A stretch of 35,472 nucleotides of DNA from Bacteroidales bacterium (lineage in GTDB: Bacteria; Bacteroidota; Bacteroidia; Bacteroidales; UBA932), in assembly GCA_017650285.1 (NCBI GenBank), contig JAGCFF010000058.1, positions 1-35,472 of the forward strand, written 5' to 3'. How positions within the stretch are numbered: position 1 is the first letter of the stretch; each line of letters opens with the position of its first letter. The notes beneath the pieces are model-generated. The model was not told the origin of the DNA and did no database searches. It worked only from the letters and a program-made list of their open reading frames with translations. Positions 1,961 to 22,088 of this stretch are shown here, one piece after another. Made by a program: the position numbers and the translations under genes.

Positions 1961-2761
1961 TCAGAAGCTGAACTGGTACGACACGCACAGGGATGCGCGG
2001 AAGCCGCGGTCGTAGCTGATCGATTTCAGCGTCGTGCCGCTCTGTGCGGTATCGACGTTCTTGTCGTAGTTGTAGTCGGCAAGCAGGTAGAAATCGAAGG
2101 AATTGTGCTTGTCGATCTCCCATTCGGCGCCTATCGATCCGCGCAGGCGATTGATATAGGCGTCGGTGTAGCCGGTGAAGACATAGTCGGTGAAAGTCTG
2201 GCTGACGGAGTTCCAGGTCGCAGCGCAGGCCGGGTCGTTGAACACGTTGCGCAGTTCCAGATAGCAGTAGGGGGTGAGGGATACGAAACCCTTGTAGGCG
2301 GCCTGTACACGGCTCTTGAGCTCGAGGGAGTTGGGCGTGCTCTGGTGCTTGTATGAGTTCACGTCCTTGTGGGTGAGCTGCAGGCGCTCTTTCAGGGAGA
2401 AATTCCAGTAGCCTGACTTCAGGGTATATTTGGCATCGGCATAGACACGGTGGCGGGTCTTCCATACGTCGGAAGACGAGAGCCTCTGGATCCATATGTA
2501 TCCTGCGCCGAACTTGAAATTGTCGTTGAGCTTGTAGGTGAGTCCGAGTCCGGTGTCGAAGCGGCCGAAACTGCTGAAATTGTCGTCGAGCCTTCCTTCG
2601 CCGGACAGGGACAGGTGCACACCCCTGACTATCTTCTTGTCGACGGTCACGCCTACGCGCGCTGCCATATCTGCGTCGAGGTCGTTCACGGTTATCTGAG
2701 CCTGAGCCAGTACGGGCATCGCGGCGAGCAGTATGCAAAGCAACAGTCTTCCAGTCTTCAT
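1961..2761 (-). CDS. Outer-membrane beta-barrel protein (DUF2490-like; family assignment tentative)
   Basis: 266 aa. It has the signal peptide 'MKTGRLLLCILLAAMPVLAQAQ', alternating hydrophobic/polar beta-strand pattern throughout, and a C-terminal aromatic 'YQFSF' typical of OMP beta-signals. It starts 4 nt after the DUF4956 stop. Confidence 0.7.
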   Translation of the reverse strand: MKTGRLLLCILLAAMPVLAQAQITVNDLDADMAARVGVTVDKKIVRGVHLSLSGEGRLDDNFSSFGRFDTGLGLTYKLNDNFKFGAGYIWIQRLSSSDVWKTRHRVYADAKYTLKSGYWNFSLKERLQLTHKDVNSYKHQSTPNSLELKSRVQAAYKGFVSLTPYCYLELRNVFNDPACAATWNSVSQTFTDYVFTGYTDAYINRLRGSIGAEWEIDKHNSFDFYLLADYNYDKNVDTAQSGTTLKSISYDRGFRASLCVSYQFSF

Positions 2762-2765
2762 AACA

Positions 2766-3533
2766 CTATTGTTCTACGAAGTCCTTGGCCCTGGTGAGAG
2801 TGTCGATCGAGCCGGTCTGGCCCTTCTCCAGCGTATAAAAAATCTTGATGTAGGCGGCATCCCTGAGGAAATCCACGTGGCCGATCTCAAGGTTGTCGAC
2901 CTTGACGCCGGTGCGCTTCTCCAGGTCTGCTATCAGTTCGTCCCTCTTTTCCGGAACTATGAGCTCGATGCGGTCGTAGAGCACCAGCTTGGTGGAAGTA
3001 TGATTGAGGAACTTGCCGTTCTCGAGGAACCAGATGAGCAGTATGACGAGCAGGTTCGACAGGGCCATAATGCCGACGGTTCCCATACTGATCACGTAGC
3101 GGGGGTCGGGACCCGCCACGCCCACGATCTTGTAGACCGGAGCGAGGCCGTTGAGGGCTGCCAGTGCGATGATGACGAAGAGGTAGGTCATCTCCCTGAT
3201 GGGCACCGTCTCGGTGCGGTAGCGTATCACGCCGAATATGGCGAAGAGGCCGAGGGTGAGGCCGACACCCACTTCCACGTTGCCCATAATGTAGAGCAGC
3301 AGGAGCATCGCGGCCGAGAACACCATGAAGGTGAAATAGTAGTCGCGGCGGCGGCTCTTGCGATAGTAGAAGAACTGGACGAGGATCCAGCATACGAGCA
3401 GGTTCAGGAAGAACCTTATGCAAAGCTCTGCAACAGACTGGCCGGTGGTCATCGCGGCGTCGGTGATGCTCTGGATGTCCATTATGTTCTCGTCGGCGAG
3501 GGTGTAGTCCCCGAAGTCCTGGGCGGTAATCAT
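2766..3533 (-). CDS. DUF4956 domain-containing inner-membrane protein
   Basis: 255 aa. The strongly conserved-looking core 'FFYYRKSRRRDYYFTFMVF..GLFAIFGVIRYRTETVPIREMTYLF' is recognised as the DUF4956 signature. It has several TM helices and a soluble C-terminal tail 'LVLYDRIELIVPEKRDELIADLEKRTG'. Its ATG overlaps the VTC stop (ATGA at 3533-3530). Confidence 0.85.
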   Translation of the reverse strand: MITAQDFGDYTLADENIMDIQSITDAAMTTGQSVAELCIRFFLNLLVCWILVQFFYYRKSRRRDYYFTFMVFSAAMLLLLYIMGNVEVGVGLTLGLFAIFGVIRYRTETVPIREMTYLFVIIALAALNGLAPVYKIVGVAGPDPRYVISMGTVGIMALSNLLVILLIWFLENGKFLNHTSTKLVLYDRIELIVPEKRDELIADLEKRTGVKVDNLEIGHVDFLRDAAYIKIFYTLEKGQTGSIDTLTRAKDFVEQ

Positions 3534-4324
3534 ATCACTTCAATTTTGTCGTTTATAATCTTTTCTATGCTGCGGACCTTCTCCTTGAAACGGTTCTTCT
3601 TGGCGGAAGGGTCGGTGAGGGTCTCCGCTATGCAGTATTTGCTGACGCGCAGCGGCTTTACGCGGTGGTCGAGCAGTATGCCCTTCATCTGGCTGGCGTA
3701 GCGGCCGTCCTGTTTGAGCTCGATGATGACGGCGTCCTTCAGGCTACCTCCGAGGCCTGTGCGGTAGTTGCTGAAATGCACTCCGGTGTCGATGGTCAGC
3801 CTCTCGGTCATTGCGGCGTTGACCAGCGTGATGCGGGCGAACGAGGTGGACAGCACCGGCTGCAGCATATCTGCGGTGAAGGCGGAGTGCCTTGCCAGAT
3901 AGTCGCAGGCGTCCCCGTCGCCTCCGAAGCCGAGCAGCTCGTCGCAGGGAATGCGGGTCCTCTTCTTCCTGGTGCGTCCGTGGTTGTCCTTGCGCTTGAT
4001 CTCCAGGTAGGCCTCGCCGGAATTCTCGTAGATGCGGGTGCGGACCTTCTGGCGTACAAGACGCTTGTCGTGGTGGGCGAGATACATCTTCAGCCCGTCG
4101 GTGTCATAATACACCGTGGTATAGGGACTCAGCTTCGAGCCCGAGGTTTCCAGCGCACGGTACCCGGCTGCCCTCGCATCCTCCAGAAGACTGACAAGCG
4201 TGGTCTCGTCTGTCACGTACTTGGTGTCGGTGCGGTTGAGCAGCCTGACGGAATCCATCTCCTCCAGGCTTACGGAGGGAATGGACCCGGCCAGGGGTTC
4301 CAGTATCGTGCGGGCATTATTCAT
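3530..4324 (-). CDS. VTC-domain (polyphosphate polymerase / triphosphate-tunnel) protein
   Basis: 264 aa with no signal peptide. 'LLNRTDTKYV', 'YTTVYYDT' and the basic strand 'AYLEIKRKDNHGRTRKKRTRI' match what I recall of bacterial VTC-domain proteins, which are annotated 'polyphosphate polymerase domain-containing protein'. Confidence 0.85.
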   Translation of the reverse strand: MNNARTILEPLAGSIPSVSLEEMDSVRLLNRTDTKYVTDETTLVSLLEDARAAGYRALETSGSKLSPYTTVYYDTDGLKMYLAHHDKRLVRQKVRTRIYENSGEAYLEIKRKDNHGRTRKKRTRIPCDELLGFGGDGDACDYLARHSAFTADMLQPVLSTSFARITLVNAAMTERLTIDTGVHFSNYRTGLGGSLKDAVIIELKQDGRYASQMKGILLDHRVKPLRVSKYCIAETLTDPSAKKNRFKEKVRSIEKIINDKIEVI

Positions 4325-4724
4325 CCTGCGTGATGTATTCGAATACCTTGGTGCTGATGAGCTTGCCTTTCGGATCGTAGGTATACTGCGTCTTCTTCTT
4401 GCCGAATTCGTTGTATTCGAACCGCTTGTAGTCTACCAGGCGGTTGCGCTCGTCATAGACCAGTTCGCGCACCAGGCGGTCGCCTGCCGCCCATTCGAAT
4501 TTCTTGCGCCACTTCTGCTTGCCGTTGCTGTAGTACTCGGTCTCGTCGATTTTCTGGCCGTCGGGAGAGTAGATGGTCTGATGGTCCAGGATACGGTGGC
4601 CTCTGGCGTCCGTGTTCCACTCCTTGACCACGAGGTTCTTCTTGTTGAGCGCCTGGCTGTCCTGTGCATACGCTGTCGACAGGCAGGCAATGAGCAATGT
4701 TGTGATGACTATCAGTTTTTTCAT
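4317..4724 (-). CDS. Small secreted protein with YD/MORN-like beta-hairpin repeats (hypothetical)
   Basis: The track ORF 4317-4817 begins with an Arg/His-rich stretch that overlaps the upstream gene. The ATG at 4724 gives a clean signal peptide 'MKKLIVITTLLIACLSTAYAQ'. The mature part is repetitive ('YYSNGKQKWRKKFEW', 'VYDERNRLVDYKRFEYNEFGKKKTQYTYDPKGKL'). It overlaps the VTC start by 8 nt. Confidence 0.7.
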   Translation of the reverse strand: MKKLIVITTLLIACLSTAYAQDSQALNKKNLVVKEWNTDARGHRILDHQTIYSPDGQKIDETEYYSNGKQKWRKKFEWAAGDRLVRELVYDERNRLVDYKRFEYNEFGKKKTQYTYDPKGKLISTKVFEYITQDE

Positions 4725-4735
4725 GGCTGTATGTT

Positions 4736-7700
4736 TTAATGGGGCCATCCTCCGCTTCCGCCGGTGTAGGTGGACAGAGTGGTCTCGGTGCCTCCGCTTA
4801 TGCCGCTTGTAGCCCACATACCGGAGCAGCGCTTGCCGCTGTTGTTCACGCTGACACCGTTGAACGCCTTGTCGAGCGAAGGCGCGGTGACGACGTATTG
4901 TGATGCACCCGAAGTCGCCTGGAAGGCGGCGATGGGCGTAGTTCCGTTGAAGAGTCCGGTCCAGCTGTTCTGCGTGGCGTTTATCTGGTAGATGTTCTGG
5001 CTTGATGAGTAGCCGCGCTCGAGGCCTCCGTACGAGACGATGGTGGCTCCGTTGTTGATGTAGAGCTTGTGGCCTTCCTCGGTGTTGGCGTCGAGGGCGA
5101 CTTCAGGACTGCCCTTGGTGGTCACGGCATAGACATAGCCGCCGCTGATCTTCATATCGCCGTTGGCGTCCATAGCGTCGTTCTTGCTGGAGAATGCGTA
5201 GATGTATCCGCTCTTTATGATCATATCTCCCTGGCAGTTGATGGCGTCGTCGGCTGCGGATGTCGAGTAGGTCTCTCCGCCGTCGAAGGTGAGCTTGCCC
5301 TTGGCCTCGATGCCTTCGCTTTTCGAACTGCTGACGGTGATGATGCCGCCGTTGATGACCAGGTTTCCGGCGGAGGCCGTCACCTTGTTGCCGTTCTTGG
5401 TAACCCAGCCGACCTTGATGCCCTTCGAAGTTTCACCGTTCGATTCGGCGCCGCTCGTGGTGATCTTGAGCGTACCTCCGGAGATATAGCTGTCGGCCAC
5501 GTTGTGGCTGCTGCTGTAGTCATAGTCGCCGGCGCTGATTCCTTTTCCGCCAGTGCCGGTATTGGTGATGGTGAGGGTTCCGGAGTTCATCTCGAAATAG
5601 TTGTCGGCCTTGATGCCTGCCGAGCCCTTGTATTCGCCGTCTTCGGTTCCTACGCCTCCGCTGACGTTGATGGTTGTGGAGCCGCCCTCCACGAGGACGT
5701 AGTTGTCAGAGGAGATGCCCTTCTTGGTCGCGGCCTTCGACGTTATGCTGATGGTGCCGGCGTTTATCTGCACATATTCATTGACCTTGATTCCGTGTCC
5801 CGCGCCGCTGTTTGCGATGACCTTGACGGTGGGTTTCGACAGGAACCTTATGTAGTCGTCGGACACGATGCCGCTCTTGCCCTTGGAGTTGTTTGCAGTC
5901 ACGGTCAGTGTGCCGCGTCCGCTGAACACCAGCTGTCCTTCGGAGAAGAAGACGGCCTTCATGTCTTCGCTGCCGGAAGAATAGGAGGCTGACGAGCCGT
6001 CCGCGAGGGCGTTGGTTCCTTCCACATATACGAAGGTCCGCTTGCCGCTCTGGTTGTTGATGGCGGCGCCGCTGCTGCAGGTGAGGTTGACGTTGCTGAG
6101 CCAGATAGCCTGCTTCTTGCTGCTGTAAAGCTTGAAGTAGCCGTCCGATGCGCTGCCCTTGAGTTTGTATGCCACGTTCTCGCTTCCGCTGTATGTGATG
6201 GTCACCTTGTTGCCGCTGATGCTTACCGTGAAGTCACCGGAGGCTGAACTGTAGCCGGTGACTGAAGCCCCGCCGGAAGCATAGGTCACGGTCACCAGAC
6301 GGGTGAAGGTGGTGTTGGAAATCTCGTCGTCGCTCGAACCGCCTCCCGACGAAGCGAAGACGGTGGTGACTTCTCCGTCCTGTCCGTCGTCACCGCCACC
6401 GCCGCCTGAACCGGGGTCGGATGTTACGGTGAGGGTATATGTGGCGGATGCGGACTGGTAGTTGGTGTTGCCGCCGAACGAGGCCGTTATGTCAGTGGTT
6501 CCGGTTCCCTTGAGGGTGACGGCTCCGCTGCTGCTTACGGTGGCCACGTTCGTCTCCGACGATGTGTAGTTTATGCTGAGACCGCCCGGAGAGACGGAGA
6601 GCGTTGGGAAACTGTTTGCACTTCCGTTTTCAAGGATGGCGTTGCAGCTTGAGGAACTCCATTCCAGATGGACCGTGTTCTTGACCACGTTGAGGTTGTA
6701 TGAGACCGTCTGGGCAGGATCGTCGTCCGTAGCCTTGGTCTTCGCGTATATGACGGTGAGACCTTCTTTCTTCAAGGTCACAGTGTAGCTGTTGCCGGAC
6801 TGGCTGACCGTCGCTACGGCTTCGTTGCTGGAACTGTATTCTACCGCCAGTCTCCCGGGGTTGTTCAGCGTCGGATAGACATTGCTGCTGCTTGCCAGCG
6901 TGGCGGTATATTCCTTGGTGCTCCAGGAGATGGTAACGTTGGCCGTGCTCTTCTGAACGGTCAGCGTATAAGAGGCGCTGGACGCATTGAAGATGTCCGT
7001 TTCCTTGCTGGAGGCGGTAATGGTTGTTTCTCCCGCTTTCTTCAGGGTGACGGTGTAGCCGGAGGCAGTGGCGCTCACCGTGGCCACGGACTCGTCGGAC
7101 GAGCTGTAGGTCACCTCGAGGTTGTTGGGGTTCTTGAGTTTAGGGAAAGAATTGTTTTGCGCCCCGATGGTCGCAGAATAATTAGCCTTGCTCCACTCCA
7201 GCCCTCCGTCGGCCTTTACGACGTTCAGGGTGTAGCTGGCAGATGTGGACGCGTATGTGTCGGTAGCCACGGAAGTGGCCTTGATGGTGGTGGTGCCCTG
7301 TGACTTGAGAGTCACGCTGCAGCCTGTTTCAGTGGCAACGACGGCGGCAACCGTTCCGTCGCTCGAACTGTATTCTATCTGCTGCTTTCCCGGATTGCTG
7401 AGGGTGGGGAAAACATTGCTGTCGCTGCCGAGGGTGGCAGTGCAGGATGCGTCGCTCCAGGAAATGAAGACTGACGACTTGGAGACGGTCAGGGTGTAGG
7501 AAGCCGTCGCCGCCTTGAATCTGCCGGTCTCCTTGCTGGAGGCGGTGATGACGGTGACGCCCTCGTGACGGAGGGTCACCTTGCAGCCATTGGAGGTGGG
7601 GGTCACGGAAGCCACGTTGCTGTCGCTCGAACTGAAGGAAACCTCCAGCTTGTCAGGATTGCTCAGCGTGGGGAAACGGTTGTCTTCGCCCATTACCGCG

Positions 7701-8887
7701 GTCGCGGAGGTCGAGCTCCACGCCAGCCTCGGTTCGGCGGGCTCTACGTTGAGGGTGTAGGAGCAGCTTGAGGAGTTGTAGATGTCTGTCTCCTCCGCCG
7801 TGGCGGTGACGGTGACGACGCCCTTGGAGAGAAGGTTCACGGCGTAGCCGTCTGCAGTGGCCGAGACTGTGGCCACCTTCGCGTCGCTGGAGCTGTAGGA
7901 GATCTTCTGGCCGCCGGGGTTGATGAGTGCGGGGAAGCTGTTGTCGGCGTTTATGGTCGCAGTGCATACCTCCTCACTCCAGGAGATGGCGACATCCGAC
8001 TTCCTGACGGTAAGGGTGTAGGAAGCACTGGACGCGTTGAAGATCCTTGATTCGGGGCTGGAAGCGGTGATGACGGTGACGCCCTCGTGGAGGGGAGTCA
8101 CCTTGCAGCCGTCGGCGGTGGCCGTGACGCTTGCAACATTGCTGTCACTCGAGCTGAAGGTCACTTCCAGCCGGTTGGGATTGAAAAGTGCGGGGAAGAT
8201 GTTGTCTTCGCCCATTACGGCCAGGGCTTCCTCTTCGCTCCAGGCCAGCTGTCCGTCGGCACGCTCGACGGTGAGGGTGTATGACACTTCGGCAGCCTCG
8301 TAGATGTCTGTCTGCGGGCTGGAAGCGGTGATGACTGCGATGCCGGCGGAAACCAGGGTCAGCCTGCAGCCGGCTTCAGCGGCCTCTACGGTTGCGACCC
8401 CTTCGTCGCTGGAGGTGAATGCCACCTCCAGCTTGTTGGGGTTGCTGAGTGACGGATATTCATTGTCATTGCCCATAACTGCCGTGGCTTCGGCCGCACT
8501 CCATCCGAGTCCCGCTCCGGCGCGTACGACCGTAAGGGTATAGGAGCAGGATGACGCCAGGAACCTGTCGTCCCTTTCGCTGAATGCAGTGATCACGGTC
8601 GTTCCCGCAGCCACCGGAGTGACCTGTCCCTTGCCGTCGACGGTAGCCACCTCCTCGTTGGAGGAGAGATAACTTACGTCGACTTTCTTGAGGTTCGACA
8701 GTGTCGGGAACTCGTTGGCCTGGCCGAGTACGGCAAGCGCTTCGGCCTGGCTCCAGCTGAGCCTGGGGTCATTGAGCGTAGCGTCCGGATCCGGGTCGAT
8801 GTCGGATATAGTTATGACATCGCCCGTGCAGTCCCAGAGCAGGGGCAGCGCCAGCGCACAGATGAACAATGACAGAAGCTTACGCAT
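4736..8887 (-). CDS. Giant surface lipoprotein: 9 tandem Ig-like (Big_2-like) modules, a Gly/Asp linker, and a Cthe_2159-type parallel beta-helix carbohydrate-binding domain
   Basis: The track start at 8890 is TTG; the ATG one codon later (8887-8885) gives 'MRKLLSLFICALALPLLWDC' (lipobox Cys). Nine ~87-aa modules have the pattern 'L/I-x-WS...FP.L.NP..L.V.[FY]SSSD..VATV....G..VTL...G.T.ITAS......A.ASYTLTV'. The linker is 'PGSGGGGGDDGQDGE'. The C-terminal ~540 aa carry repeated 'KGIS/EGIEA/DDAINC/NDAMDA' turns characteristic of the Cthe_2159 beta-helix family. Confidence 0.9.
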   Translation of the reverse strand: MRKLLSLFICALALPLLWDCTGDVITISDIDPDPDATLNDPRLSWSQAEALAVLGQANEFPTLSNLKKVDVSYLSSNEEVATVDGKGQVTPVAAGTTVITAFSERDDRFLASSCSYTLTVVRAGAGLGWSAAEATAVMGNDNEYPSLSNPNKLEVAFTSSDEGVATVEAAEAGCRLTLVSAGIAVITASSPQTDIYEAAEVSYTLTVERADGQLAWSEEEALAVMGEDNIFPALFNPNRLEVTFSSSDSNVASVTATADGCKVTPLHEGVTVITASSPESRIFNASSASYTLTVRKSDVAISWSEEVCTATINADNSFPALINPGGQKISYSSSDAKVATVSATADGYAVNLLSKGVVTVTATAEETDIYNSSSCSYTLNVEPAEPRLAWSSTSATAVMGEDNRFPTLSNPDKLEVSFSSSDSNVASVTPTSNGCKVTLRHEGVTVITASSKETGRFKAATASYTLTVSKSSVFISWSDASCTATLGSDSNVFPTLSNPGKQQIEYSSSDGTVAAVVATETGCSVTLKSQGTTTIKATSVATDTYASTSASYTLNVVKADGGLEWSKANYSATIGAQNNSFPKLKNPNNLEVTYSSSDESVATVSATASGYTVTLKKAGETTITASSKETDIFNASSASYTLTVQKSTANVTISWSTKEYTATLASSSNVYPTLNNPGRLAVEYSSSNEAVATVSQSGNSYTVTLKKEGLTVIYAKTKATDDDPAQTVSYNLNVVKNTVHLEWSSSSCNAILENGSANSFPTLSVSPGGLSINYTSSETNVATVSSSGAVTLKGTGTTDITASFGGNTNYQSASATYTLTVTSDPGSGGGGGDDGQDGEVTTVFASSGGGSSDDEISNTTFTRLVTVTYASGGASVTGYSSASGDFTVSISGNKVTITYSGSENVAYKLKGSASDGYFKLYSSKKQAIWLSNVNLTCSSGAAINNQSGKRTFVYVEGTNALADGSSASYSSGSEDMKAVFFSEGQLVFSGRGTLTVTANNSKGKSGIVSDDYIRFLSKPTVKVIANSGAGHGIKVNEYVQINAGTISITSKAATKKGISSDNYVLVEGGSTTINVSGGVGTEDGEYKGSAGIKADNYFEMNSGTLTITNTGTGGKGISAGDYDYSSSHNVADSYISGGTLKITTSGAESNGETSKGIKVGWVTKNGNKVTASAGNLVINGGIITVSSSKSEGIEAKGKLTFDGGETYSTSAADDAINCQGDMIIKSGYIYAFSSKNDAMDANGDMKISGGYVYAVTTKGSPEVALDANTEEGHKLYINNGATIVSYGGLERGYSSSQNIYQINATQNSWTGLFNGTTPIAAFQATSGASQYVVTAPSLDKAFNGVSVNNSGKRCSGMWATSGISGGTETTLSTYTGGSGGWPH
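6422..8761 (-). repeat. Intragenic tandem array of 9 Ig-like coding modules (period ~261 bp, with a younger 522-bp two-module duplication)
   Basis: Module starts fall at aa 44, 128, 215, 302, 389, 476, 564, 654 and 742 of the track ORF. An identical 26-mer 'gcggtgatgacggtgacgccctcgtg' occurs at 8064-8089 and 7542-7567, an offset of exactly 522 bp. Confidence 0.85.
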
Positions 8888-11787
8888 CAATATCCGAATA
8901 TTTCTTCAAGAGTTACGTTCTGTACGGGACCGAGGGTCCTGAGGAAGTTCATGTCGAGATCAGCGGGATCGCCGAGGATTCCGTAGTAGTATGTGCGGTC
9001 CTTGACGTATTTCTGCTGGATGGCGACAATGTCGTTCATCGTCAGAGAAGGGAGTTTCTGGTATACCAGTTTCTCGACAGGCTCGTCGATGCCGAGTTCC
9101 TCAGCTGCGAGATAGCTGTTGAGCACGGCGGCGCCGGTGGTCCTGTTGGTGCGCAGCACGCCGTCGAGAGCGGTCTTGGCGATCTCGAATGCACGGTCGC
9201 TCTGCGGCATATTGTTGATGATGTCGTCGAATGCCTCGACAGCTGCCCTGAGCTTGTCGTTCTGCGAGCCGATCCTTGCCATAAAGTAGTAGTCGTCCTG
9301 CTTGTAGGTGGGAGAAGCCAGACGGGCGCCTGCAGAGTAGGCGAGAGCCCTGGCCTCACGCATCTCCTGGAACACGATGGTGTTCATTCCGCTTCCGAAA
9401 TACTCGTTGTAGAGATTGATTGCAGGTTCGTCGGCAAGCTCGTATTTCTCACCGCGGTTGGTATACTGGATGTAGTTGAACTGACGTGCGTCATAGGGGG
9501 CGACTATCACTTTCGGAGAGTCGGTGCGCACCTTCGGGGTACGGATCCTGGTGACGGGCGTGAGCGAGCCGGCAACGTCGTGGTTCTCGGCGATGAGGTC
9601 CTTGACTTCGCCTGATGAGGCGGGACCGTAGTAGAGCACCTTGTGCTTCTTGGTGAGCAGGTTGGTGACCTTGGCCAGAAGTTCCTCGGAGGTGAGGTCG
9701 ATGATCTGCTGGTTGGTGAGGGTGCGGGCCTTCACGTTCTCCGGGCCGTAGATGACATACCTGTTGAGGGCGCTTGAGCAGGAGTTCTGGTTGAACTTGC
9801 TGATGGCGCGCTGCTGGAGCTGGTCGGCCTTGAGGGCGGCGAGGATGTCCTCGTCAGCGACAGCGTTGGCGATGAGGTCTTCAGCGATTTCGAGAGCCTT
9901 GCCGATGTTCTCGCCAAGTCCTGAGACGGCAATCCTGGTCTGGTCGTCGCCGCAGGCGAAATCGAAGCTCGATGCAAGCTTGTACATCTCTATTGCAATC
10001 TCCTCGGCACTGCGGGTCTCGGTTCCGAGGTAGCTTACGTAGTTGAGAGCGAAGCTCATTGCAGGGTCGTTGAGAAGGCCTTCGTCAAAGAGGAATACGA
10101 GCTGGGCGATGTCGTTCTTCTCGTTGTTCTTGTAGATGATGTCGAGGTCAGAACGGCCTTTGAATACTGACATATCCTTTGAGAAGTCGACGAAGACGGG
10201 TTCGATGGGCTTCACTGCAGTGCTCTGCACTTCAACGAGGAAATCGCTCTGCTTGTCGCGGTTGGTGGCGATGGGGGTGATGGCGGGAGCCTCGATCTTG
10301 TGGATGTCAGGATCTACTCCGATATGCTTGTAGGCTGTAACGTGGCTGTTTTCGCCGAGATACTTGTTGGCCCAGGCGACGATGTCCTGCTTGGTGAGCT
10401 TTGAGAGCCTGTCGAGCAGCTGCACGTCATCCTTCCAGTCGCGGCCTGCGATGAACGAGTTGACGAACTGCATTGCGCGGCTGCGGTTGTTCTCGAGGCT
10501 GCTCATCTGGCTGAGCTTGAAGTTGGCGATGGATGCTTCAACGAGGTCCTCGTCAAAGTCGCCGCTGCGGAGCTTGGCAACTTCTGCAAGAAGAAGGTCC
10601 CTGACTTCCTTGAGGCTCTGTCCCTCCTTGGGGTAACCTTCGAGAAGGAACTGGCCGTAGTCAACAGAGCCGTATGCGAAGGCTCCTGCGTCGAGCGCTT
10701 TCTGCTGCTGGTTGATGTCGAGGTCGATGAGGCCTGCCATACCGTTGTAGAGGATTGCTGAAACCACGTCGGCAACGTCGCCTTCGAGGTCCTTGCTGCC
10801 GGGATAGCGCCAGCCGATCATTACGAATTCAGCCTCGGTGCCGTAAACGTCTTTCTCGACAGGGGCGGTGATGTCCTTCTCGGGAGCATATTTCAGCTCG
10901 GGAACACCTGCTGAACGCTCCCAGTCGCCGAAGTACTTCTCGATGGTCTTAACGAACTCGTCGGGCTCGAAGTCTCCCGATACGCAGATGGCGATGTTGT
11001 CAGGAACGTAGTAGGTGGCTTTCTGCTTCTTGATGGTGGTGATAGAAGGGTTCTTCAGGTGGTCCTGGGTGCCGATGACGGTCTGCTTGCCGTAAGGATG
11101 GTTCTTGAAGAGTTCCTTGGCGATGGAAGTCATGGCCTTCTCCATATCCTCGTTGAGGTTCATGTTGTATTCCTCGTACACGGCCTCGAGCTCGGTGTGG
11201 AAACCGCGGATGACCATATTCTTGAAACGGTCGGCCTGGACCTTGGCCCAGTTGTCGATCTGGTTGGAAGGGATGTCCTCCACATAGCAGGTCACGTCTT
11301 CAGAGGTGAAGGCGTTGGTGCCCTGCGAACCGATCATGGCCATCAGCTTGTCATACTCGTTGGGGATGGCGATCTGTGATGCAAGGTAGCTCACAGAGTC
11401 GATCTGGCGGTAGAGCATCCTTCTCTCCACGGGGTCGGTCTTTGTCCTGTAAACTTCATAGAGTCGTTCGATCTCGTCGAGCAGGGGCTTCTCGGCTGCA
11501 TAGTCCGAAGTGCCGAAACTTTCGGTGCCCTTGAACATCAGGTGCTCGAGATAGTGGGCGAGACCCGTGTTGTCAGAGGGGTCGTTCTTGCCGCCTGTGC
11601 GGACGGCGATCATGGTCTGAAGCCTGGGCTCGTCCTTGTTGACGGTCATGTAGATCTTCATACCGTTGTCCATCGTGTAGATCTTGGTCTGAAGAGGGTC
11701 TCCTTTCACGGTCTCATACTTGCCGGAGCAGGAGAAGAGCATCATCATCGCCGTAAAGGCGAGAATCAAATTGGTAATTCTTTTCAT
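8887..11787 (-). CDS. M16 (pitrilysin/insulinase) family zinc peptidase lipoprotein, double-length form
   Basis: The inverted zinc motif HxxEH is present in 'GLAHYLEHLMFKGT'. The ATG at 11787 gives the lipoprotein signal 'MKRITNLILAFTAMMMLFSC'. The longer track start at 11874 would run through the candidate promoter. The stop TGA (8889-8887) shares its A with the ATG of the next gene. Confidence 0.9.
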   Translation of the reverse strand: MKRITNLILAFTAMMMLFSCSGKYETVKGDPLQTKIYTMDNGMKIYMTVNKDEPRLQTMIAVRTGGKNDPSDNTGLAHYLEHLMFKGTESFGTSDYAAEKPLLDEIERLYEVYRTKTDPVERRMLYRQIDSVSYLASQIAIPNEYDKLMAMIGSQGTNAFTSEDVTCYVEDIPSNQIDNWAKVQADRFKNMVIRGFHTELEAVYEEYNMNLNEDMEKAMTSIAKELFKNHPYGKQTVIGTQDHLKNPSITTIKKQKATYYVPDNIAICVSGDFEPDEFVKTIEKYFGDWERSAGVPELKYAPEKDITAPVEKDVYGTEAEFVMIGWRYPGSKDLEGDVADVVSAILYNGMAGLIDLDINQQQKALDAGAFAYGSVDYGQFLLEGYPKEGQSLKEVRDLLLAEVAKLRSGDFDEDLVEASIANFKLSQMSSLENNRSRAMQFVNSFIAGRDWKDDVQLLDRLSKLTKQDIVAWANKYLGENSHVTAYKHIGVDPDIHKIEAPAITPIATNRDKQSDFLVEVQSTAVKPIEPVFVDFSKDMSVFKGRSDLDIIYKNNEKNDIAQLVFLFDEGLLNDPAMSFALNYVSYLGTETRSAEEIAIEMYKLASSFDFACGDDQTRIAVSGLGENIGKALEIAEDLIANAVADEDILAALKADQLQQRAISKFNQNSCSSALNRYVIYGPENVKARTLTNQQIIDLTSEELLAKVTNLLTKKHKVLYYGPASSGEVKDLIAENHDVAGSLTPVTRIRTPKVRTDSPKVIVAPYDARQFNYIQYTNRGEKYELADEPAINLYNEYFGSGMNTIVFQEMREARALAYSAGARLASPTYKQDDYYFMARIGSQNDKLRAAVEAFDDIINNMPQSDRAFEIAKTALDGVLRTNRTTGAAVLNSYLAAEELGIDEPVEKLVYQKLPSLTMNDIVAIQQKYVKDRTYYYGILGDPADLDMNFLRTLGPVQNVTLEEIFGY

Positions 11788-11827
11788 ATCTTGACGTTTA
11801 AAAATAGCCGATAGCAATTGTAACTTA

Positions 11828-11835
11828 CAAAAGTA
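11828..11835 (-). promoter_or_regulatory. Candidate -7 box (TAnnTTTG on the minus strand) for the M16-to-barrel operon
   Basis: Plus-strand 'CAAAAGTA' is minus-strand 'TACTTTTG', about 40 nt upstream of the ATG at 11787. Confidence 0.35.
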
Positions 11836-11880
11836 TAAAATATGCCCCAAAAGCGTTATCTTTACGCACATCAATTTGCT

Positions 11881-12810
11881 ATGGAAGCCAAAAGAATTTA
11901 TCTAGCAGCAGGGTGTTTCTGGGGTGCGGAACATTTTCTCCGCAAGCTTCCGGGAATCAAATCCACCCGGGTGGGCTTTGCCAACGGCAGCACACCGTCA
12001 CCGTCCTATCGTGAAGTATATACCGACACTACCGGTTACGCAGAGACCGTGGAGGTCGTCTATGATCCGGAGAAGATGCCTTTGAAATGGCTGGTGGAGG
12101 CCTATTTCGCCATCATCGATCCACTGAGCCTGAATCGTCAGGGGGAGGATGAGGGTACCCGTTACCGCACCGGCATCTTCTACGAAGACGAAGCAGACCT
12201 TGCAGCCATCGATGAAGCTTACAGCCGTGAGCAGGACTTTCAGGGCCAGGCGCTCCGCGTCGAGAAGGAGCCGCTGCGCAATTTCTATCCTGCTGAAGAG
12301 GAACATCAGGATTACCTGATAAAGCACGCCGACGGATACTGCCACGTAGACCTGAAGGCGTTCCGCTATGCCGAACTGCTCAAGGAGCTTGAGAGTATGG
12401 TAGAGGGAGTAGGCGACGAAGTTGGTGTGATGGCCAATACGGCCGCACTGATCCACGAGAGCATGCGTTTCTTCTGGACCGGTTTCTACCGGGTGGCCGA
12501 TGAAGGACATCTCGCCCTCGGCCCGTTCCAGGGACCTGTGGCCTGCTACAGCATAGGCTTCGGCAAAGGCGTGTGCGGTACGTCTTGGAAGCGTATGGCC
12601 AGCGTAGTGGTCGAGGATGTAGAGCAGTTCCCCGGACACATCGCCTGCAGCAGCGCTTCACGCTCCGAGATAGTGGTTCCCCTGTTCGATCGTTCGGGCA
12701 AGGTTAGGGCCGTTCTGGACATAGACAGCGACAGGCTGGCCACATTCGACGATATCGACCGCCGGATGCTGGAGATAGCGATGCAGATCGTTGCCCGGGA
12801 AATCTATTGA
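11881..12810 (+). CDS. msrA: Fusion of peptide-methionine (S)-S-oxide reductase MsrA and a GAF-domain free methionine-(R)-sulfoxide reductase (fRMsr/MsrC)
   Basis: The N-terminal half carries the MsrA active site 'AAGCFWGAEHF'. The C-terminal half carries fRMsr hallmarks 'GPVACYSIGFGKGVCGTSW' and 'FPGHIACSSASRSEIVVPL' (three catalytic-type Cys). The start is ambiguous: ATG 11881 ('MEAKRIYLAAGCFWG') is preferred over ATG 11842 because of a 7/8 -7 box 'TATCTTTA' at 11858-11865. Confidence 0.85.
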   Translation: MEAKRIYLAAGCFWGAEHFLRKLPGIKSTRVGFANGSTPSPSYREVYTDTTGYAETVEVVYDPEKMPLKWLVEAYFAIIDPLSLNRQGEDEGTRYRTGIFYEDEADLAAIDEAYSREQDFQGQALRVEKEPLRNFYPAEEEHQDYLIKHADGYCHVDLKAFRYAELLKELESMVEGVGDEVGVMANTAALIHESMRFFWTGFYRVADEGHLALGPFQGPVACYSIGFGKGVCGTSWKRMASVVVEDVEQFPGHIACSSASRSEIVVPLFDRSGKVRAVLDIDSDRLATFDDIDRRMLEIAMQIVAREIY

Positions 12811-13799
12811 CGGCCGATTATGTCGATCCGCCAGGTGATGCCGAGGTCGAAGTTGTCCCTTCTGAGAGAATTGTCGCGATAGTAGACTGCGTGCAGCCTT
12901 ATGTTGTCGCGTCCCAGCGGGAAGTATTCCACGCCGGCTCCGGCGTAAAGATATTCTGTGCCCGGTGCGATCACCGCGTCGAAGGGGCGTCCGTACCTGT
13001 CGACATTGTCGCGCGAGTTGGTCTCGTAACCTCCCTTGAAGCAGAGATTCCAGTCGCCTACGCTCCAGATGGTCTTGAGGATCACCGTATAGTCGGTGAA
13101 AAAGAAGTTCCTCTGCTGGAAGGAGGCCCTGTTCATAAGGTCCAGATCCAGCAGGAAGTTGTCCCACTGGAAGTGGTTGCCCAGGGCGAGGTAGTTGATG
13201 AAACGCCCGTCCAGATCCTGAACGAAGTTGGCGGTCCATATGGTGTTCCATATGTCAGTGATCTTGCCCATCCAGGCGAAGTTGTAGGCATAGACGCCCT
13301 GGTAGCCGTATGAAAGGGGAGAGGTGCAGACCTGGAACTCCAGCAGCTGCCTGTCGGTGAGCCTGTATGCCGTGCTGGCACCGAAGGTGAAACCCTGGTT
13401 TATGCTGTTGCAGAACTTGCTGTAGAAATAGACGTCGATGGGCACGGCGTCATATTCGTAGCCTCCTATCAGCACGGCGTCCTTGCCGACGCGGAAACTC
13501 CACCGGTCAGTGGCCTGCCAGTTGATGTAGAGGAAGTCCGTGGCGTTGAAGACGTAGTGCTCGTCGAACACCTGCTTGTTGAGCCTCTGCCGCAGTCGGT
13601 AGTTGATGCGGTCGTTGATGTGGCCGAATATGTTGAGGTTGAGGTGGTCGGCAAGGAACTGTGTGCTGACATCCCCGTCATCGCCCTGGAGATGGAATAT
13701 GCCTCGCGTGTCGATATAGAGCCTGTCGACTCCGCCGGCCTGGGCCATTGCGGTGAATGACAGCACTGTCAGTGCAACAATGGAAAGAATCTTTCTCAT
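12804..13799 (-). CDS. Outer-membrane porin (OprO/OprP phosphate-selective-porin-like; tentative)
   Basis: 331 aa. It has the signal peptide 'MRKILSIVALTVLSFTAMAQA' and a beta-strand-rich, aromatic-girdle composition. 'INYRLRQRLNKQ' and 'FRVGKDAVLIGGYEY' resemble Porin_O_P family blocks as I remember them. Confidence 0.65.
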   Translation of the reverse strand: MRKILSIVALTVLSFTAMAQAGGVDRLYIDTRGIFHLQGDDGDVSTQFLADHLNLNIFGHINDRINYRLRQRLNKQVFDEHYVFNATDFLYINWQATDRWSFRVGKDAVLIGGYEYDAVPIDVYFYSKFCNSINQGFTFGASTAYRLTDRQLLEFQVCTSPLSYGYQGVYAYNFAWMGKITDIWNTIWTANFVQDLDGRFINYLALGNHFQWDNFLLDLDLMNRASFQQRNFFFTDYTVILKTIWSVGDWNLCFKGGYETNSRDNVDRYGRPFDAVIAPGTEYLYAGAGVEYFPLGRDNIRLHAVYYRDNSLRRDNFDLGITWRIDIIGRQ

Positions 13800-13806
13800 A
13801 GCTTGG

Positions 13807-14910
13807 TCAGTTTTCGGGAACCAGGTTCAGCACCACATATTCGCTCCTCGTTCCTATGCGGAACTTGCCGCCCCAGATTCCCATACCCGATGTTATATAA
13901 TAGTTGGTGTTTCCTTTTGCGTAACGTCCGTATGACTTCTCGAACTTGAGACGTGTCACTATCGTCGCGGGCCAGATCTGTCCGTTGTGCGTGTGGCCGC
14001 TGAACTGGAAGTCGATTCCTGCTTCTTCGGCTTCTTCAAGATGCTCGGGCTGATGGTCGAGCAGGATCGAGAACTTGCTCCGGTCAGAGCCGGAGAGGAC
14101 GTGCCCGAGAGGCTGCCTGCTGTATTTGTTGGAGTTGTCGTCCCGTCCTATGATTACGATGCCGCAGTCTTCGGCCCACCCGTTTTTCAGAAGACGGATG
14201 CCGGCTTCCCTGTAGAAGTCTTCAGACTGGGCGATGCCTGCATAATATTCGTGATTGCCGAGGCAGGCGTAGACCGGAGCTTCGATCCTGCGGAACTCGG
14301 CGGCATCGTCGTCATCCTCGAGCGCGCGGATGGAACGGTCTATCAGGTCTCCTCCGAACAGGACCAGGTCCGGGTGCTCGGCATTGATCATATCGACCCA
14401 TTTGGCGAGATCGGCCCTGCGGTTGTGATATCCGATGTGTAGGTCGCTGGCAAATACCGCCTTGACCGGCCGGCTGATCTTCTGGGAAGTCAGGGTGATC
14501 TCTTCCCTGTATTTGTGCCTGTAATGGATTCCGCCGTAGACCAGCAGCACCGCTATGGTGCCGAAGACCAGAGCAGTCCCGGCCCAGCTGTCGGAGTGGA
14601 TGCCGGACGGCAGCACGCGGCAAAGCTGGAGCACCCTCATCAGCACGAACAGCAGCATGGCGTACAGCGAGAATATGAGGCAGGTATTGCCGGTCACATA
14701 GAGTGCTGACGCCACGCCCATCGGGAAATGGCTGACCCTTCCGCTGATGGAGATGAAGAACCCGGCGAATGCAAGCAGATAGAGGCCCACAGCCGTCCAT
14801 TTCCACAGGTTGGAAAGCGGAAGGATGCGGTAGATGCAGAAAGCTACATATCCCAATGCGGCAAAAGCTGACAACATTATGATCATTCCGGTGAGTTTTG
14901 TGAAATCCAT
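13807..14910 (-). CDS. Membrane-anchored metallophosphoesterase (calcineurin-like, YkuE/YaeI-type)
   Basis: The track start 14919 is TTG; the ATG at 14910 gives 'MDFTKLTGMIIMLSAF'. Four to five N-terminal TM helices are followed by the motifs 'DLHIG', 'GGDLID', 'GNHEY' and 'GHTHNG'. Confidence 0.85.
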   Translation of the reverse strand: MDFTKLTGMIIMLSAFAALGYVAFCIYRILPLSNLWKWTAVGLYLLAFAGFFISISGRVSHFPMGVASALYVTGNTCLIFSLYAMLLFVLMRVLQLCRVLPSGIHSDSWAGTALVFGTIAVLLVYGGIHYRHKYREEITLTSQKISRPVKAVFASDLHIGYHNRRADLAKWVDMINAEHPDLVLFGGDLIDRSIRALEDDDDAAEFRRIEAPVYACLGNHEYYAGIAQSEDFYREAGIRLLKNGWAEDCGIVIIGRDDNSNKYSRQPLGHVLSGSDRSKFSILLDHQPEHLEEAEEAGIDFQFSGHTHNGQIWPATIVTRLKFEKSYGRYAKGNTNYYITSGMGIWGGKFRIGTRSEYVVLNLVPEN

Positions 14911-14926
14911 CAAATGCAAATTTATG

Positions 14927-16694: not shown

Positions 16695-16732
16695 AACGCA
16701 ACGGGCTGCTGCAGTCCGTTGCGTTTTTTTTG
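16695..16732 (+). terminator. Rho-independent terminator of aqpZ
   Basis: A perfect 10-bp stem, 'aacgcaacgg' (16695-16704) with 'ccgttgcgtt' (16716-16725), has an 11-nt loop and is followed by an 8-T run (16724-16731). Confidence 0.75.
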
Positions 16733-16740
16733 TACATTTG
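16733..16740 (+). promoter_or_regulatory. Candidate -7 box for the patatin-Omp85 gene
   Basis: An exact 'TACATTTG' lies 36 nt upstream of the ATG at 16776, immediately after the aqpZ terminator. Confidence 0.4.
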
Positions 16741-16775
16741 TGTATTGTGTAATACCATATTCATTCAGAGGATTG

Positions 16776-22088
<5,313 letters not shown>

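Follow-up and report, generated by a model that had tools for sequence, protein, structure and literature searches.

A conserved Bacteroidales gene cluster pairing a VTC-type tunnel enzyme with DUF4956 and predicted envelope proteins: a candidate system for polyphosphate export

The nearest characterised system to the genes described here is the eukaryotic VTC complex, the polyphosphate polymerase-translocase of yeast (structures 3G3Q/3G3R, 7YTJ and 8I6V). The genes in question lie on the minus strand of a 35,472-nucleotide stretch of DNA from a Bacteroidales bacterium (contig JAGCFF010000058.1 of assembly GCA_017650285.1; this whole stretch is called the window below). They encode a lipoprotein with a Cthe_2159 beta-helix, a small secreted protein, a VTC-type triphosphate-tunnel enzyme, the inner-membrane protein DUF4956 and a predicted outer-membrane beta-barrel, DUF2490. 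The cluster resembles the yeast complex in that its enzyme carries the Pfam VTC catalytic domain with a predicted tunnel fold, conserves the counterparts of Vtc4 residues K200, R264, R266, K281, R361, S457 and K458, and has a multi-pass membrane protein as its obligate partner; as in yeast, its product would reach a compartment topologically outside the cytoplasm. Unlike Vtc4, the bacterial enzyme is a stand-alone protein of 264 amino acids (aa), without SPX domain or fused membrane helices; it shares about 15% identity with Vtc4 and differs from it at two tunnel positions (Asp33 for Thr198, Phe162 for Tyr359). What is shared with the nearest characterised system is thus the catalytic domain, whereas the membrane partner is unrelated (DUF4956 has no detectable similarity to the membrane domain of Vtc1/3/4) and three envelope components are added: a periplasmic protein, an outer-membrane barrel and a surface lipoprotein.

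The components of the cluster are already catalogued as families, and the link between VTC and DUF4956 has been noted before. Genes in the arrangement cotH-VTC-DUF4956(-DUF4832) occur next to pel genes in streptococci, clostridia and bifidobacteria (PMC7112168; PMC2879425; 10.1101/2024.04.20.589940); in Firmicutes the order cotH-"polyphosphate polymerase"-DUF4956 adjoins pel operons and is also found in the NELoc-2 locus of C. perfringens (PMC7112168, PMC2879425). These clusters share the tightly linked core pair with the present one, likewise come with an accessory protein that is secreted or at the surface, and have an equally putative function. The cluster of the window differs in lacking CotH, DUF4832 and pel genes; the Bacteroidota version has in their place a periplasmic YD-repeat protein, the DUF2490 barrel and a Cthe_2159 lipoprotein, as would be expected of a two-membrane envelope. 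A further comparison is with PPK1 and PPK2, whose product (polyphosphate from a nucleoside triphosphate) would be the same if the reading proposed below is right, but whose fold and family are unrelated. PPK products remain in the cytoplasm, and we know of no dedicated envelope partners of PPK. VTC has been described as the eukaryotic type of polymerase and PPK as the prokaryotic one (PMC12526157).

A five-gene unit in Bacteroidales

In the order of transcription, the window's cluster consists of genes for the lipoprotein (4736-8887; 1383 aa), the small secreted, periplasmic protein (4317-4724; 135 aa), the cytoplasmic VTC enzyme, a putative polyphosphate polymerase (3530-4324; 264 aa), DUF4956 (2766-3533; 255 aa) and DUF2490 (1961-2761; 266 aa). 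They follow one another with an 11-nt gap (4725-4735), an 8-nt overlap, ATGAATAA (4317-4324), an ATGA overlap (3530-3533) and a 4-nt gap (2762-2765). A sixth minus-strand gene, coding for an M16 zinc peptidase, precedes them, its stop codon overlapping the ATG of the lipoprotein gene by 1 nt within TGATG (8885-8889). Re-reading of the sequence confirmed all six open reading frames (ORFs) and all five junctions as given in an earlier note on this DNA, which had proposed a six-gene machine spanning the envelope. Every domain assignment in that note was recovered by a Pfam search above the curated cut-offs: Peptidase_M16 (1.1e-16) and Peptidase_M16_C (8.9e-34) in the M16 protein; Big_2 (3.2e-28) and Cthe_2159 (PF14262; 131.2 bits against a cut-off of 25.8; 5.6e-38; aa 891-1213) in the lipoprotein; VTC (PF09359; 99.3 bits against 23; E = 3.2e-28; 230 of 235 profile positions covered); DUF4956 (PF16316; 164.7 bits against 30.6; E = 2.1e-48); and DUF2490 (PF10677; 65.3 bits against 29.8; E = 8e-18), the last with an additional weak match to OMP_b-brl. 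The predicted locations of the encoded proteins across the layers of the envelope hold as well.

The conservation of this arrangement was assessed with a VTC alignment, which was run against a single GTDB representative genome for each species and yielded 80 loci. Since a closer alignment served as query, these loci are Bacteroidales-like relatives, with VTC proteins 50-71% identical to the window's. The other components were searched for by tblastn with the window proteins, and for each gene only loci with enough flanking DNA were counted as testable. DUF4956 lies directly downstream of VTC in all 76 testable loci and the small secreted protein directly upstream in 68 of 76, with four more loci carrying it elsewhere. 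DUF2490 is found downstream of VTC in 62 of 74 loci, and a Cthe_2159 gene upstream, on the same strand, in 44 of 67 (three more have it elsewhere), in line with an association that the earlier note had cited. The three core junctions measure 20 nt or less in 77/78, 60/63 and 68/70 of the loci carrying each gene pair (inter-gene gaps in other species being measured from maximal ORF starts), so that the operon-like packing seen in the window is shared by other species and is more than a matter of chance. The presence of Cthe_2159 goes with that of DUF2490 (Fisher p = 0.0016, a value that ignores phylogeny). From the inside of the cell to the outside, median identities run from 72% for DUF4956 through 61% for VTC, 56% for the small protein and 46% for Cthe_2159 to 43% for DUF2490.

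The M16 peptidase behaves differently. A match anywhere near VTC was obtained in one of 56 testable loci (30% identity, opposite strand, 7 kb away), and beyond a sister species the gene is linked to the cluster in no other species; the six-gene unit therefore does not survive the comparison. The conserved unit is one of five genes, encoding the Cthe_2159 lipoprotein, the small protein, VTC, DUF4956 and DUF2490, and the window's copy is an ordinary member of a cluster type common in Bacteroidales. The view that the outer-membrane barrel stands in for a missing CotH also had to be given up, as DUF2490 is the normal Bacteroidota partner; a Pfam search found no CotH domain in the six proteins or their neighbours. 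The earlier proposal is partly supported: the domains, the predicted locations and the packing stand, and M16 does not belong to the conserved module.

More distant relatives, at about 45% identity (L088-L090), all keep VTC and DUF4956; two of these three loci have an annotated DUF2490 gene, two a small ORF upstream and one a Cthe_2159 gene downstream. Minimal clusters consisting of the small protein, VTC and DUF4956, with neither DUF2490 nor Cthe_2159 linked, are found at L010, L018, L021, L022, L024, L027 and L079; in L021 a CDF cation-efflux gene is located directly upstream (8609-9493). Unbiased clustering of all neighbouring ORFs brought out one further recurrent neighbour, a histidine kinase of LytS type (PF06580) together with a LytTR response regulator, which is found at 25 of the 80 loci, mostly divergent from the lipoprotein gene (for example, L008 5270-7038, L058 7699-9509 and L043 5831-7671). 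This pair, which has no counterpart in the window, is likely a dedicated regulator of the cluster.

Loci identical to the window's are present in several metagenome assemblies of the ENA, and the nearest genomes come from uncultured Bacteroidales of rumen and gut, among them Candidatus Cryptobacteroides. Bacteroidales-type clusters, several with a DUF2490 gene, also turn up in "cleanbin" records (L065, L077, L078, L083, L084, L085 and L087) labelled Ruminococcus bicirculans, Gastranaerophilales, Bulleidia, Oscillibacter, Faecalibacillus or Methanomethylophilaceae; these are most likely mis-binned contigs and not genuine occurrences in those taxa. Two unusual proteins were considered as possible fusions: P0092 (399 aa), in which the small protein is joined to VTC through an out-of-frame stretch, and P0121 (384 aa), a DUF4956 with an internal duplication. 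Both look like frameshift, sequencing or assembly artefacts and were therefore set aside as evidence of interaction.

The tunnel enzyme and its membrane partner

The VTC family comprises 3,510 clusters at 50% identity (E <= 1e-3), and at least 575 close relatives of the window's enzyme were confirmed in species-representative genomes. The enzyme contains a single VTC domain (Pfam) and has neither an SPX domain nor a membrane segment. Its AlphaFold2 (AF2) model is of high quality (pLDDT 95.1, pTM 0.90). When this model was compared with the PDB by Foldseek, the best 13 matches were all tunnel domains of Vtc4, Vtc2 and Vtc3 (E 3.7e-12 to 4.7e-10; TM 0.50-0.59, the best reaching 0.59), followed by ygiF, the CYTH "adenylate cyclases" and thiamine triphosphatase. 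As modelled, the bacterial protein is thus a closed beta-barrel tunnel whose fold is closest to that of Vtc4. At the sequence level the relationship is faint: a search of PDB sequences with the single sequence did not return Vtc4, a profile of 38 diverse sequences reached Vtc2 and Vtc4 marginally (E = 6e-3), and a less diverse profile lost them again. The figure of about 15% identity comes from the structural alignment.

The key residues of Vtc4 (K200, R264, R266, K281, Y359, R361, E426, S457 and K458) are said to go back to Hothorn et al. (2009), who reportedly tied the Lys458/Ser457 pair to polymerase activity. Inactive Vtc2 and Vtc3 reportedly lack the catalytic lysine. The alignment of the profile with the PDB sequences pairs, in the order bacterial enzyme/Vtc4, R31/R196, K35/K200, R95/R264, R97/R266, K110/K281, R164/R361, S228/S457 and K229/K458, and all eight bacterial residues are invariant in the 38 diverse homologues. 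Together with phosphate-related neighbours in other phyla (see below), these intact Vtc4-type tunnel residues make plausible a synthesis of polyphosphate, its passage through DUF4956 and its hand-over to the surface protein.

Tunnel folds nevertheless serve many reactions, as the enzymes that come next among the fold matches illustrate. The VTC protein might accordingly be a triphosphatase, a nucleotide cyclase or a producer of some small molecule, forming with DUF4956 a membrane signalling or regulatory pair, while the barrel, the small protein and the lipoprotein would be co-regulated with the pair and would not handle its product. The marginal sequence similarity to Vtc4, detected by profile and not by single sequence, leaves room for such a chemistry. 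We consider it unlikely, as the residues that distinguish Vtc4 are kept, among them the catalytic lysine reportedly absent from the inactive paralogues, and all VTC proteins outrank every other tunnel enzyme in the structural comparison. Moreover, regulation alone would hardly explain why the gene order is fixed, why the genes of three envelope proteins lie so close to the pair and why secreted partners recur in other phyla.

DUF4956 is the most conserved component of the cluster. It is predicted to consist of about five helices followed by a small C-terminal domain of beta-alpha-beta-beta-alpha type (low-confidence model), and it carries an invariant motif, IRYRTE..P.REMTY, between two helices. 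The quality of the model was poor, so that its secondary structure alone was used. A preprint (10.1101/2024.04.20.589940) likens the C-terminal domain to the ligand-binding ACT fold, a description that would suit the signalling pair just considered; no match to ACT, DUF202 or any other Pfam family was obtained for DUF4956 or its C-terminal domain at relaxed thresholds.

The pair also occurs outside Bacteroidota, as seen in a tblastn search of annotated plasmids. In Deinococcus taeanensis the gene order is CotH-VTC-DUF4956, and in Deinococcus sp. QL22 VTC-DUF4956 lies beside a HAD acid phosphatase gene and phnDCE. Among Alphaproteobacteria, Aminobacter has DUF4956-VTC followed by a phytase-like esterase; Nitratireductor has msrB-msrA-DUF4956-VTC, then an inorganic phosphate transporter and then a phytase-like esterase. 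Signal peptides are present on the CotH partner of Deinococcus and the phytase-like partner of Aminobacter. The universal core is VTC plus DUF4956, to which are added accessory partners that are specific to the lineage and located outside the cytoplasm; the neighbours are often related to phosphorus. The Deinococcus locus, along with the Firmicutes clusters (PMC7112168, PMC2879425), also substantiates an association with CotH that the earlier note had mentioned.

Outer components and a possible route for polyphosphate

The lipoprotein of the window begins with a signal peptide and Cys20, after which come an acidic stretch, nine Big_2 Ig-like repeats (about 87 aa each), a Gly/Asp/Ser linker and the C-terminal Cthe_2159 beta-helix, which extends from about aa 891 to the end (4739-6217, minus strand). 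Tandem Repeats Finder detected no DNA-level repeats in the Ig region; the nine repeats are diverged at the nucleotide level. Homologues in related loci measure between about 550 and 1164 aa, with a median of 620, most being of about 600 aa, and the Ig stalk is often missing; the Cthe_2159 part, 29-68% identical in other species (tblastn), is what is conserved of the lipoprotein. Nearly all homologues open with a lipoprotein signal and have acidic residues after the cysteine. Acidic residues at this place are the surface-export pattern of Bacteroidota lipoproteins, and the N-termini of the Cthe_2159 proteins are consistent with surface-exported lipoproteins. In a second metagenome a locus of the same species (L003) has a CAG-to-TAG change at about 5591 (about 8749 in the window). 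The resulting stop, near codon 47 of the lipoprotein gene, breaks the gene call into pieces of 46 aa and 1299 aa; this may be a naturally occurring variant in which the surface protein has lost its function.

In the small protein, a conserved A-x-A|Q closes the signal peptide, and the mature form is basic, with a pI of 9.0. The protein shows weak YD/RHS-like hairpin repeats (RHS_repeat matches in 10 of 20 homologues, the best at 1.2e-6), and no Pfam family proper to it was found. The DUF2490 protein has an N-terminal signal ending in AQAQ, a C-terminal YQFSF conserved as Y.FSF, and twelve conserved basic residues. In being a small predicted barrel with basic residues it is comparable to KdgM and NanC, small monomeric porins for linear acidic oligomers, and to OprO/OprP; no sequence similarity to any solved porin was found. 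The conserved basic residues would suit a linear polyanion. DUF2490 is listed as a putative porin family (TC 1.B.81; PMC4827864). A buried charge network was reported in a minority of DUF2490 models (238 of 2,789; preprint 10.64898/2026.07.29.741452), and therefore an open pore remains putative. Profile searches of PDB sequences that started from the small protein, from DUF4956 and from DUF2490 gave nothing meaningful. A possible kinship between DUF2490 and a Porin_O_P-like protein encoded elsewhere in the window was discarded, the profile comparison having aligned the signal peptides only.

On the reading that we prefer, the cluster would direct polymerisation-coupled export of polyphosphate across the envelope, as the bacterial equivalent of yeast's VTC polymerase-translocase. 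By analogy with yeast Vtc4, cytoplasmic VTC would polymerise polyphosphate from ATP, and the growing chain would be handed to its obligate partner DUF4956 and carried across the inner membrane, DUF4956 taking the part of the unrelated Vtc1/3/4 membrane domain. In Bacteroidota the basic small protein might then aid the chain across the periplasm; the chain would leave through the basic-lined DUF2490 barrel, and the beta-helix lipoprotein would hold or use it at the cell surface. The gene content, the conserved linkage, the predicted fold and the intact tunnel residues are what the analysis shows; we infer from them that the product is polyphosphate, that it travels outwards, that DUF4956 serves as its channel and what the three outer components do. 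Export is the simplest reading because the enzyme has the fold and residues of a polymerase, its membrane partner is constant and the other partners are extracytoplasmic. We regard this scheme as quite possibly correct, if slightly short of probable. A more elaborate version, in which a dedicated, PPK-independent system of Gram-negative bacteria, common among Bacteroidales of gut and rumen, secretes polyphosphate through DUF4956 and DUF2490 to coat or arm the surface beta-helix lipoprotein and sister versions in other phyla supply secreted CotH kinases, appears doubtful.

Several observations weigh against polyphosphate export. In the tunnel, an invariant Asp33 occupies the position of Vtc4 Thr198 and an invariant Phe162 that of Tyr359, and the counterpart of Glu426 falls outside the direct alignment (E202 in IIELK being the likely equivalent); a hydrolytic or other tunnel chemistry is therefore possible. 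The AF2 model of DUF4956 has a pLDDT of 52 and derives from a shallow alignment (79-100% identity). The DUF4956 profile reached no chain belonging to the VTC complex among PDB entries even at E <= 10, and no similarity was found to the membrane domains of Vtc1/3/4 or to any solved protein or channel; DUF2490 shows none to the phosphate porins OprO/OprP. In about one third of the loci no Cthe_2159 gene is linked, and DUF2490 is missing from 12 of 74, so that the outer parts are dispensable or encoded elsewhere. Lastly, the literature search found passing mentions and speculation and no functional study of bacterial VTC, DUF4956 or DUF2490, bearing out, as far as the searchable literature goes, the statement in the earlier note that the bacterial VTC/DUF4956 genes have no experimentally assigned role. 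In B. thetaiotaomicron, BT3498 and BT3499 are DUF4956 and DUF2490 proteins by annotation and appear, without significance, in a transcriptome table on iron limitation (PMC10434189). For Streptococcus intermedius, a preprint offers the speculation that the VTC-like protein of this species produces polyphosphate in the cytoplasm (10.1101/2024.04.20.589940).

The same set of components could also be read as working inwards. The surface lipoprotein would capture an external polyanion, polyphosphate or another phospho-polymer, which would pass from DUF2490 to the small protein and DUF4956, the tunnel enzyme finally pulling it in and processing it, for example by phosphotransfer to ADP or by hydrolysis. 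A surface lipoprotein combined with an outer-membrane barrel, periplasmic and inner-membrane parts is the usual layout of nutrient-acquisition loci in Bacteroidota. Phosphate-acquisition neighbours in other phyla (the phosphate transporter, phnDCE, the acid phosphatase and the phytase-like esterase), the Porin_O_P-like and Metallophos genes near the cluster in the window, and the invariant Asp33, which recalls hydrolytic tunnel enzymes, all point the same way. The cluster is, however, without a TonB-dependent SusC/SusD pair, and it conserves the Lys458/Ser457 pair, which is reportedly tied to polymerase activity in Vtc4. In addition, the CotH protein of Firmicutes and Deinococcus is a secreted kinase, better suited to the outward supply of a donor than to uptake. 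Uptake by the cluster is, all told, improbable.

The recurrent tie to CotH (PMC7112168; PMC2879425) raises another alternative, namely, that an exported poly- or oligophosphate is not a stored or structural polymer but the phosphoryl donor for extracytoplasmic modification of surface proteins or glycans, used by CotH kinases in Gram-positive bacteria and Deinococcus and by the beta-helix protein here. Secreted CotH kinases would otherwise be without an energy-rich donor outside the cell, and the link to exopolysaccharide (pel) loci (PMC7112168) and the carbohydrate-binding annotation of Cthe_2159 domains in Pfam are consistent with such a role. The idea is, on the other hand, entirely inferential: a Pfam search found no kinase-like or transferase domain in the Bacteroidales cluster, and an enzymatic role for the beta-helix is putative. 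It strikes us as quite unlikely.

If active, bacterial VTC would be a second bacterial route to polyphosphate, always paired with one membrane protein. Should the export scheme be true, a polymer delivered outside the cytoplasm of abundant gut and rumen species could affect cation binding, the biofilm matrix, host interaction and extracellular phosphorylation. Functions would follow for DUF4956, DUF2490, the small YD-repeat protein and the bacterial Cthe_2159 lipoproteins, and the fact that CotH kinases travel with VTC genes could be explained.

The M16 gene, transcription signals and other neighbours

The M16 zinc peptidase, a lipoprotein of 966 aa with a HYLEH motif and the lipobox LFSC (Peptidase_M16 and M16_C in Pfam), is encoded at 8887-11787 on the minus strand. 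Apart from the same species (L001-L004), the sister species represented by L091 is the only one in which its gene adjoins the cluster; in the relatives L088-L090 the gene is absent next to the cluster. The overlap of its stop codon with the lipoprotein start, its maintained adjacency in L091 and the transcription signals described below could be taken to mean that all six genes form a single trans-envelope machine, with the giant lipoprotein, for example, as a substrate of the peptidase. This we hold to be very unlikely, since the gene is missing from the vicinity of the cluster elsewhere, the single weak, opposite-strand match among the 56 loci apart. In L091, where VTC is 77% identical, the entire surrounding region is syntenic and the M16/lipoprotein overlap becomes a 10-nt gap; simple shared ancestry therefore explains the adjacency. 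M16 is probably a co-transcribed neighbour outside the conserved module, and in this genus the five-gene unit is probably read through from the unrelated M16 gene.

A candidate Bacteroidota -7 promoter box, TACTTTTG, matching TAnnTTTG, lies on the minus strand at 11828-11835, 41 nt 5' of the M16 ATG. It is the sole minus-strand match to this motif within 1961-11900; across the whole window the motif is not more frequent than expected by chance (10 observed, 7.6 expected), and no -33 TTTG with good spacing to the box was seen. A scan for minus-strand terminator-like sites found none inside the six-gene block. A lone upstream box and the absence of an internal terminator had both been claimed before, and both hold. 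At the other end, a gene for an AsnC-type regulator is convergent with the DUF2490 gene, 7 nt away.

Divergent from the operon is a gene for an MsrA-GAF fusion (11842-12810, plus strand). The plasmid pOM-1 of Nitratireductor carries msrB-msrA directly upstream of DUF4956-VTC (L095 4202-5151), and the recurrence of msr genes beside the cluster in these two cases may be chance. Past the divergent msrA lie the genes for the Porin_O_P-like porin and a Metallophos phosphoesterase, at 12804-13799 and 13807-14919 on the minus strand. The porin is retained in L091, and a 47%-identical homologue is encoded directly after DUF2490 in L061; these are phosphate-related neighbours, yet they are not conserved across the 80 loci. 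Further along, on the plus strand (16719-19217), the window encodes an 832-aa patatin-like phospholipase fused to an Omp85-type barrel, a domain combination found in the PlpD-type two-partner/type Vd secreted lipases.

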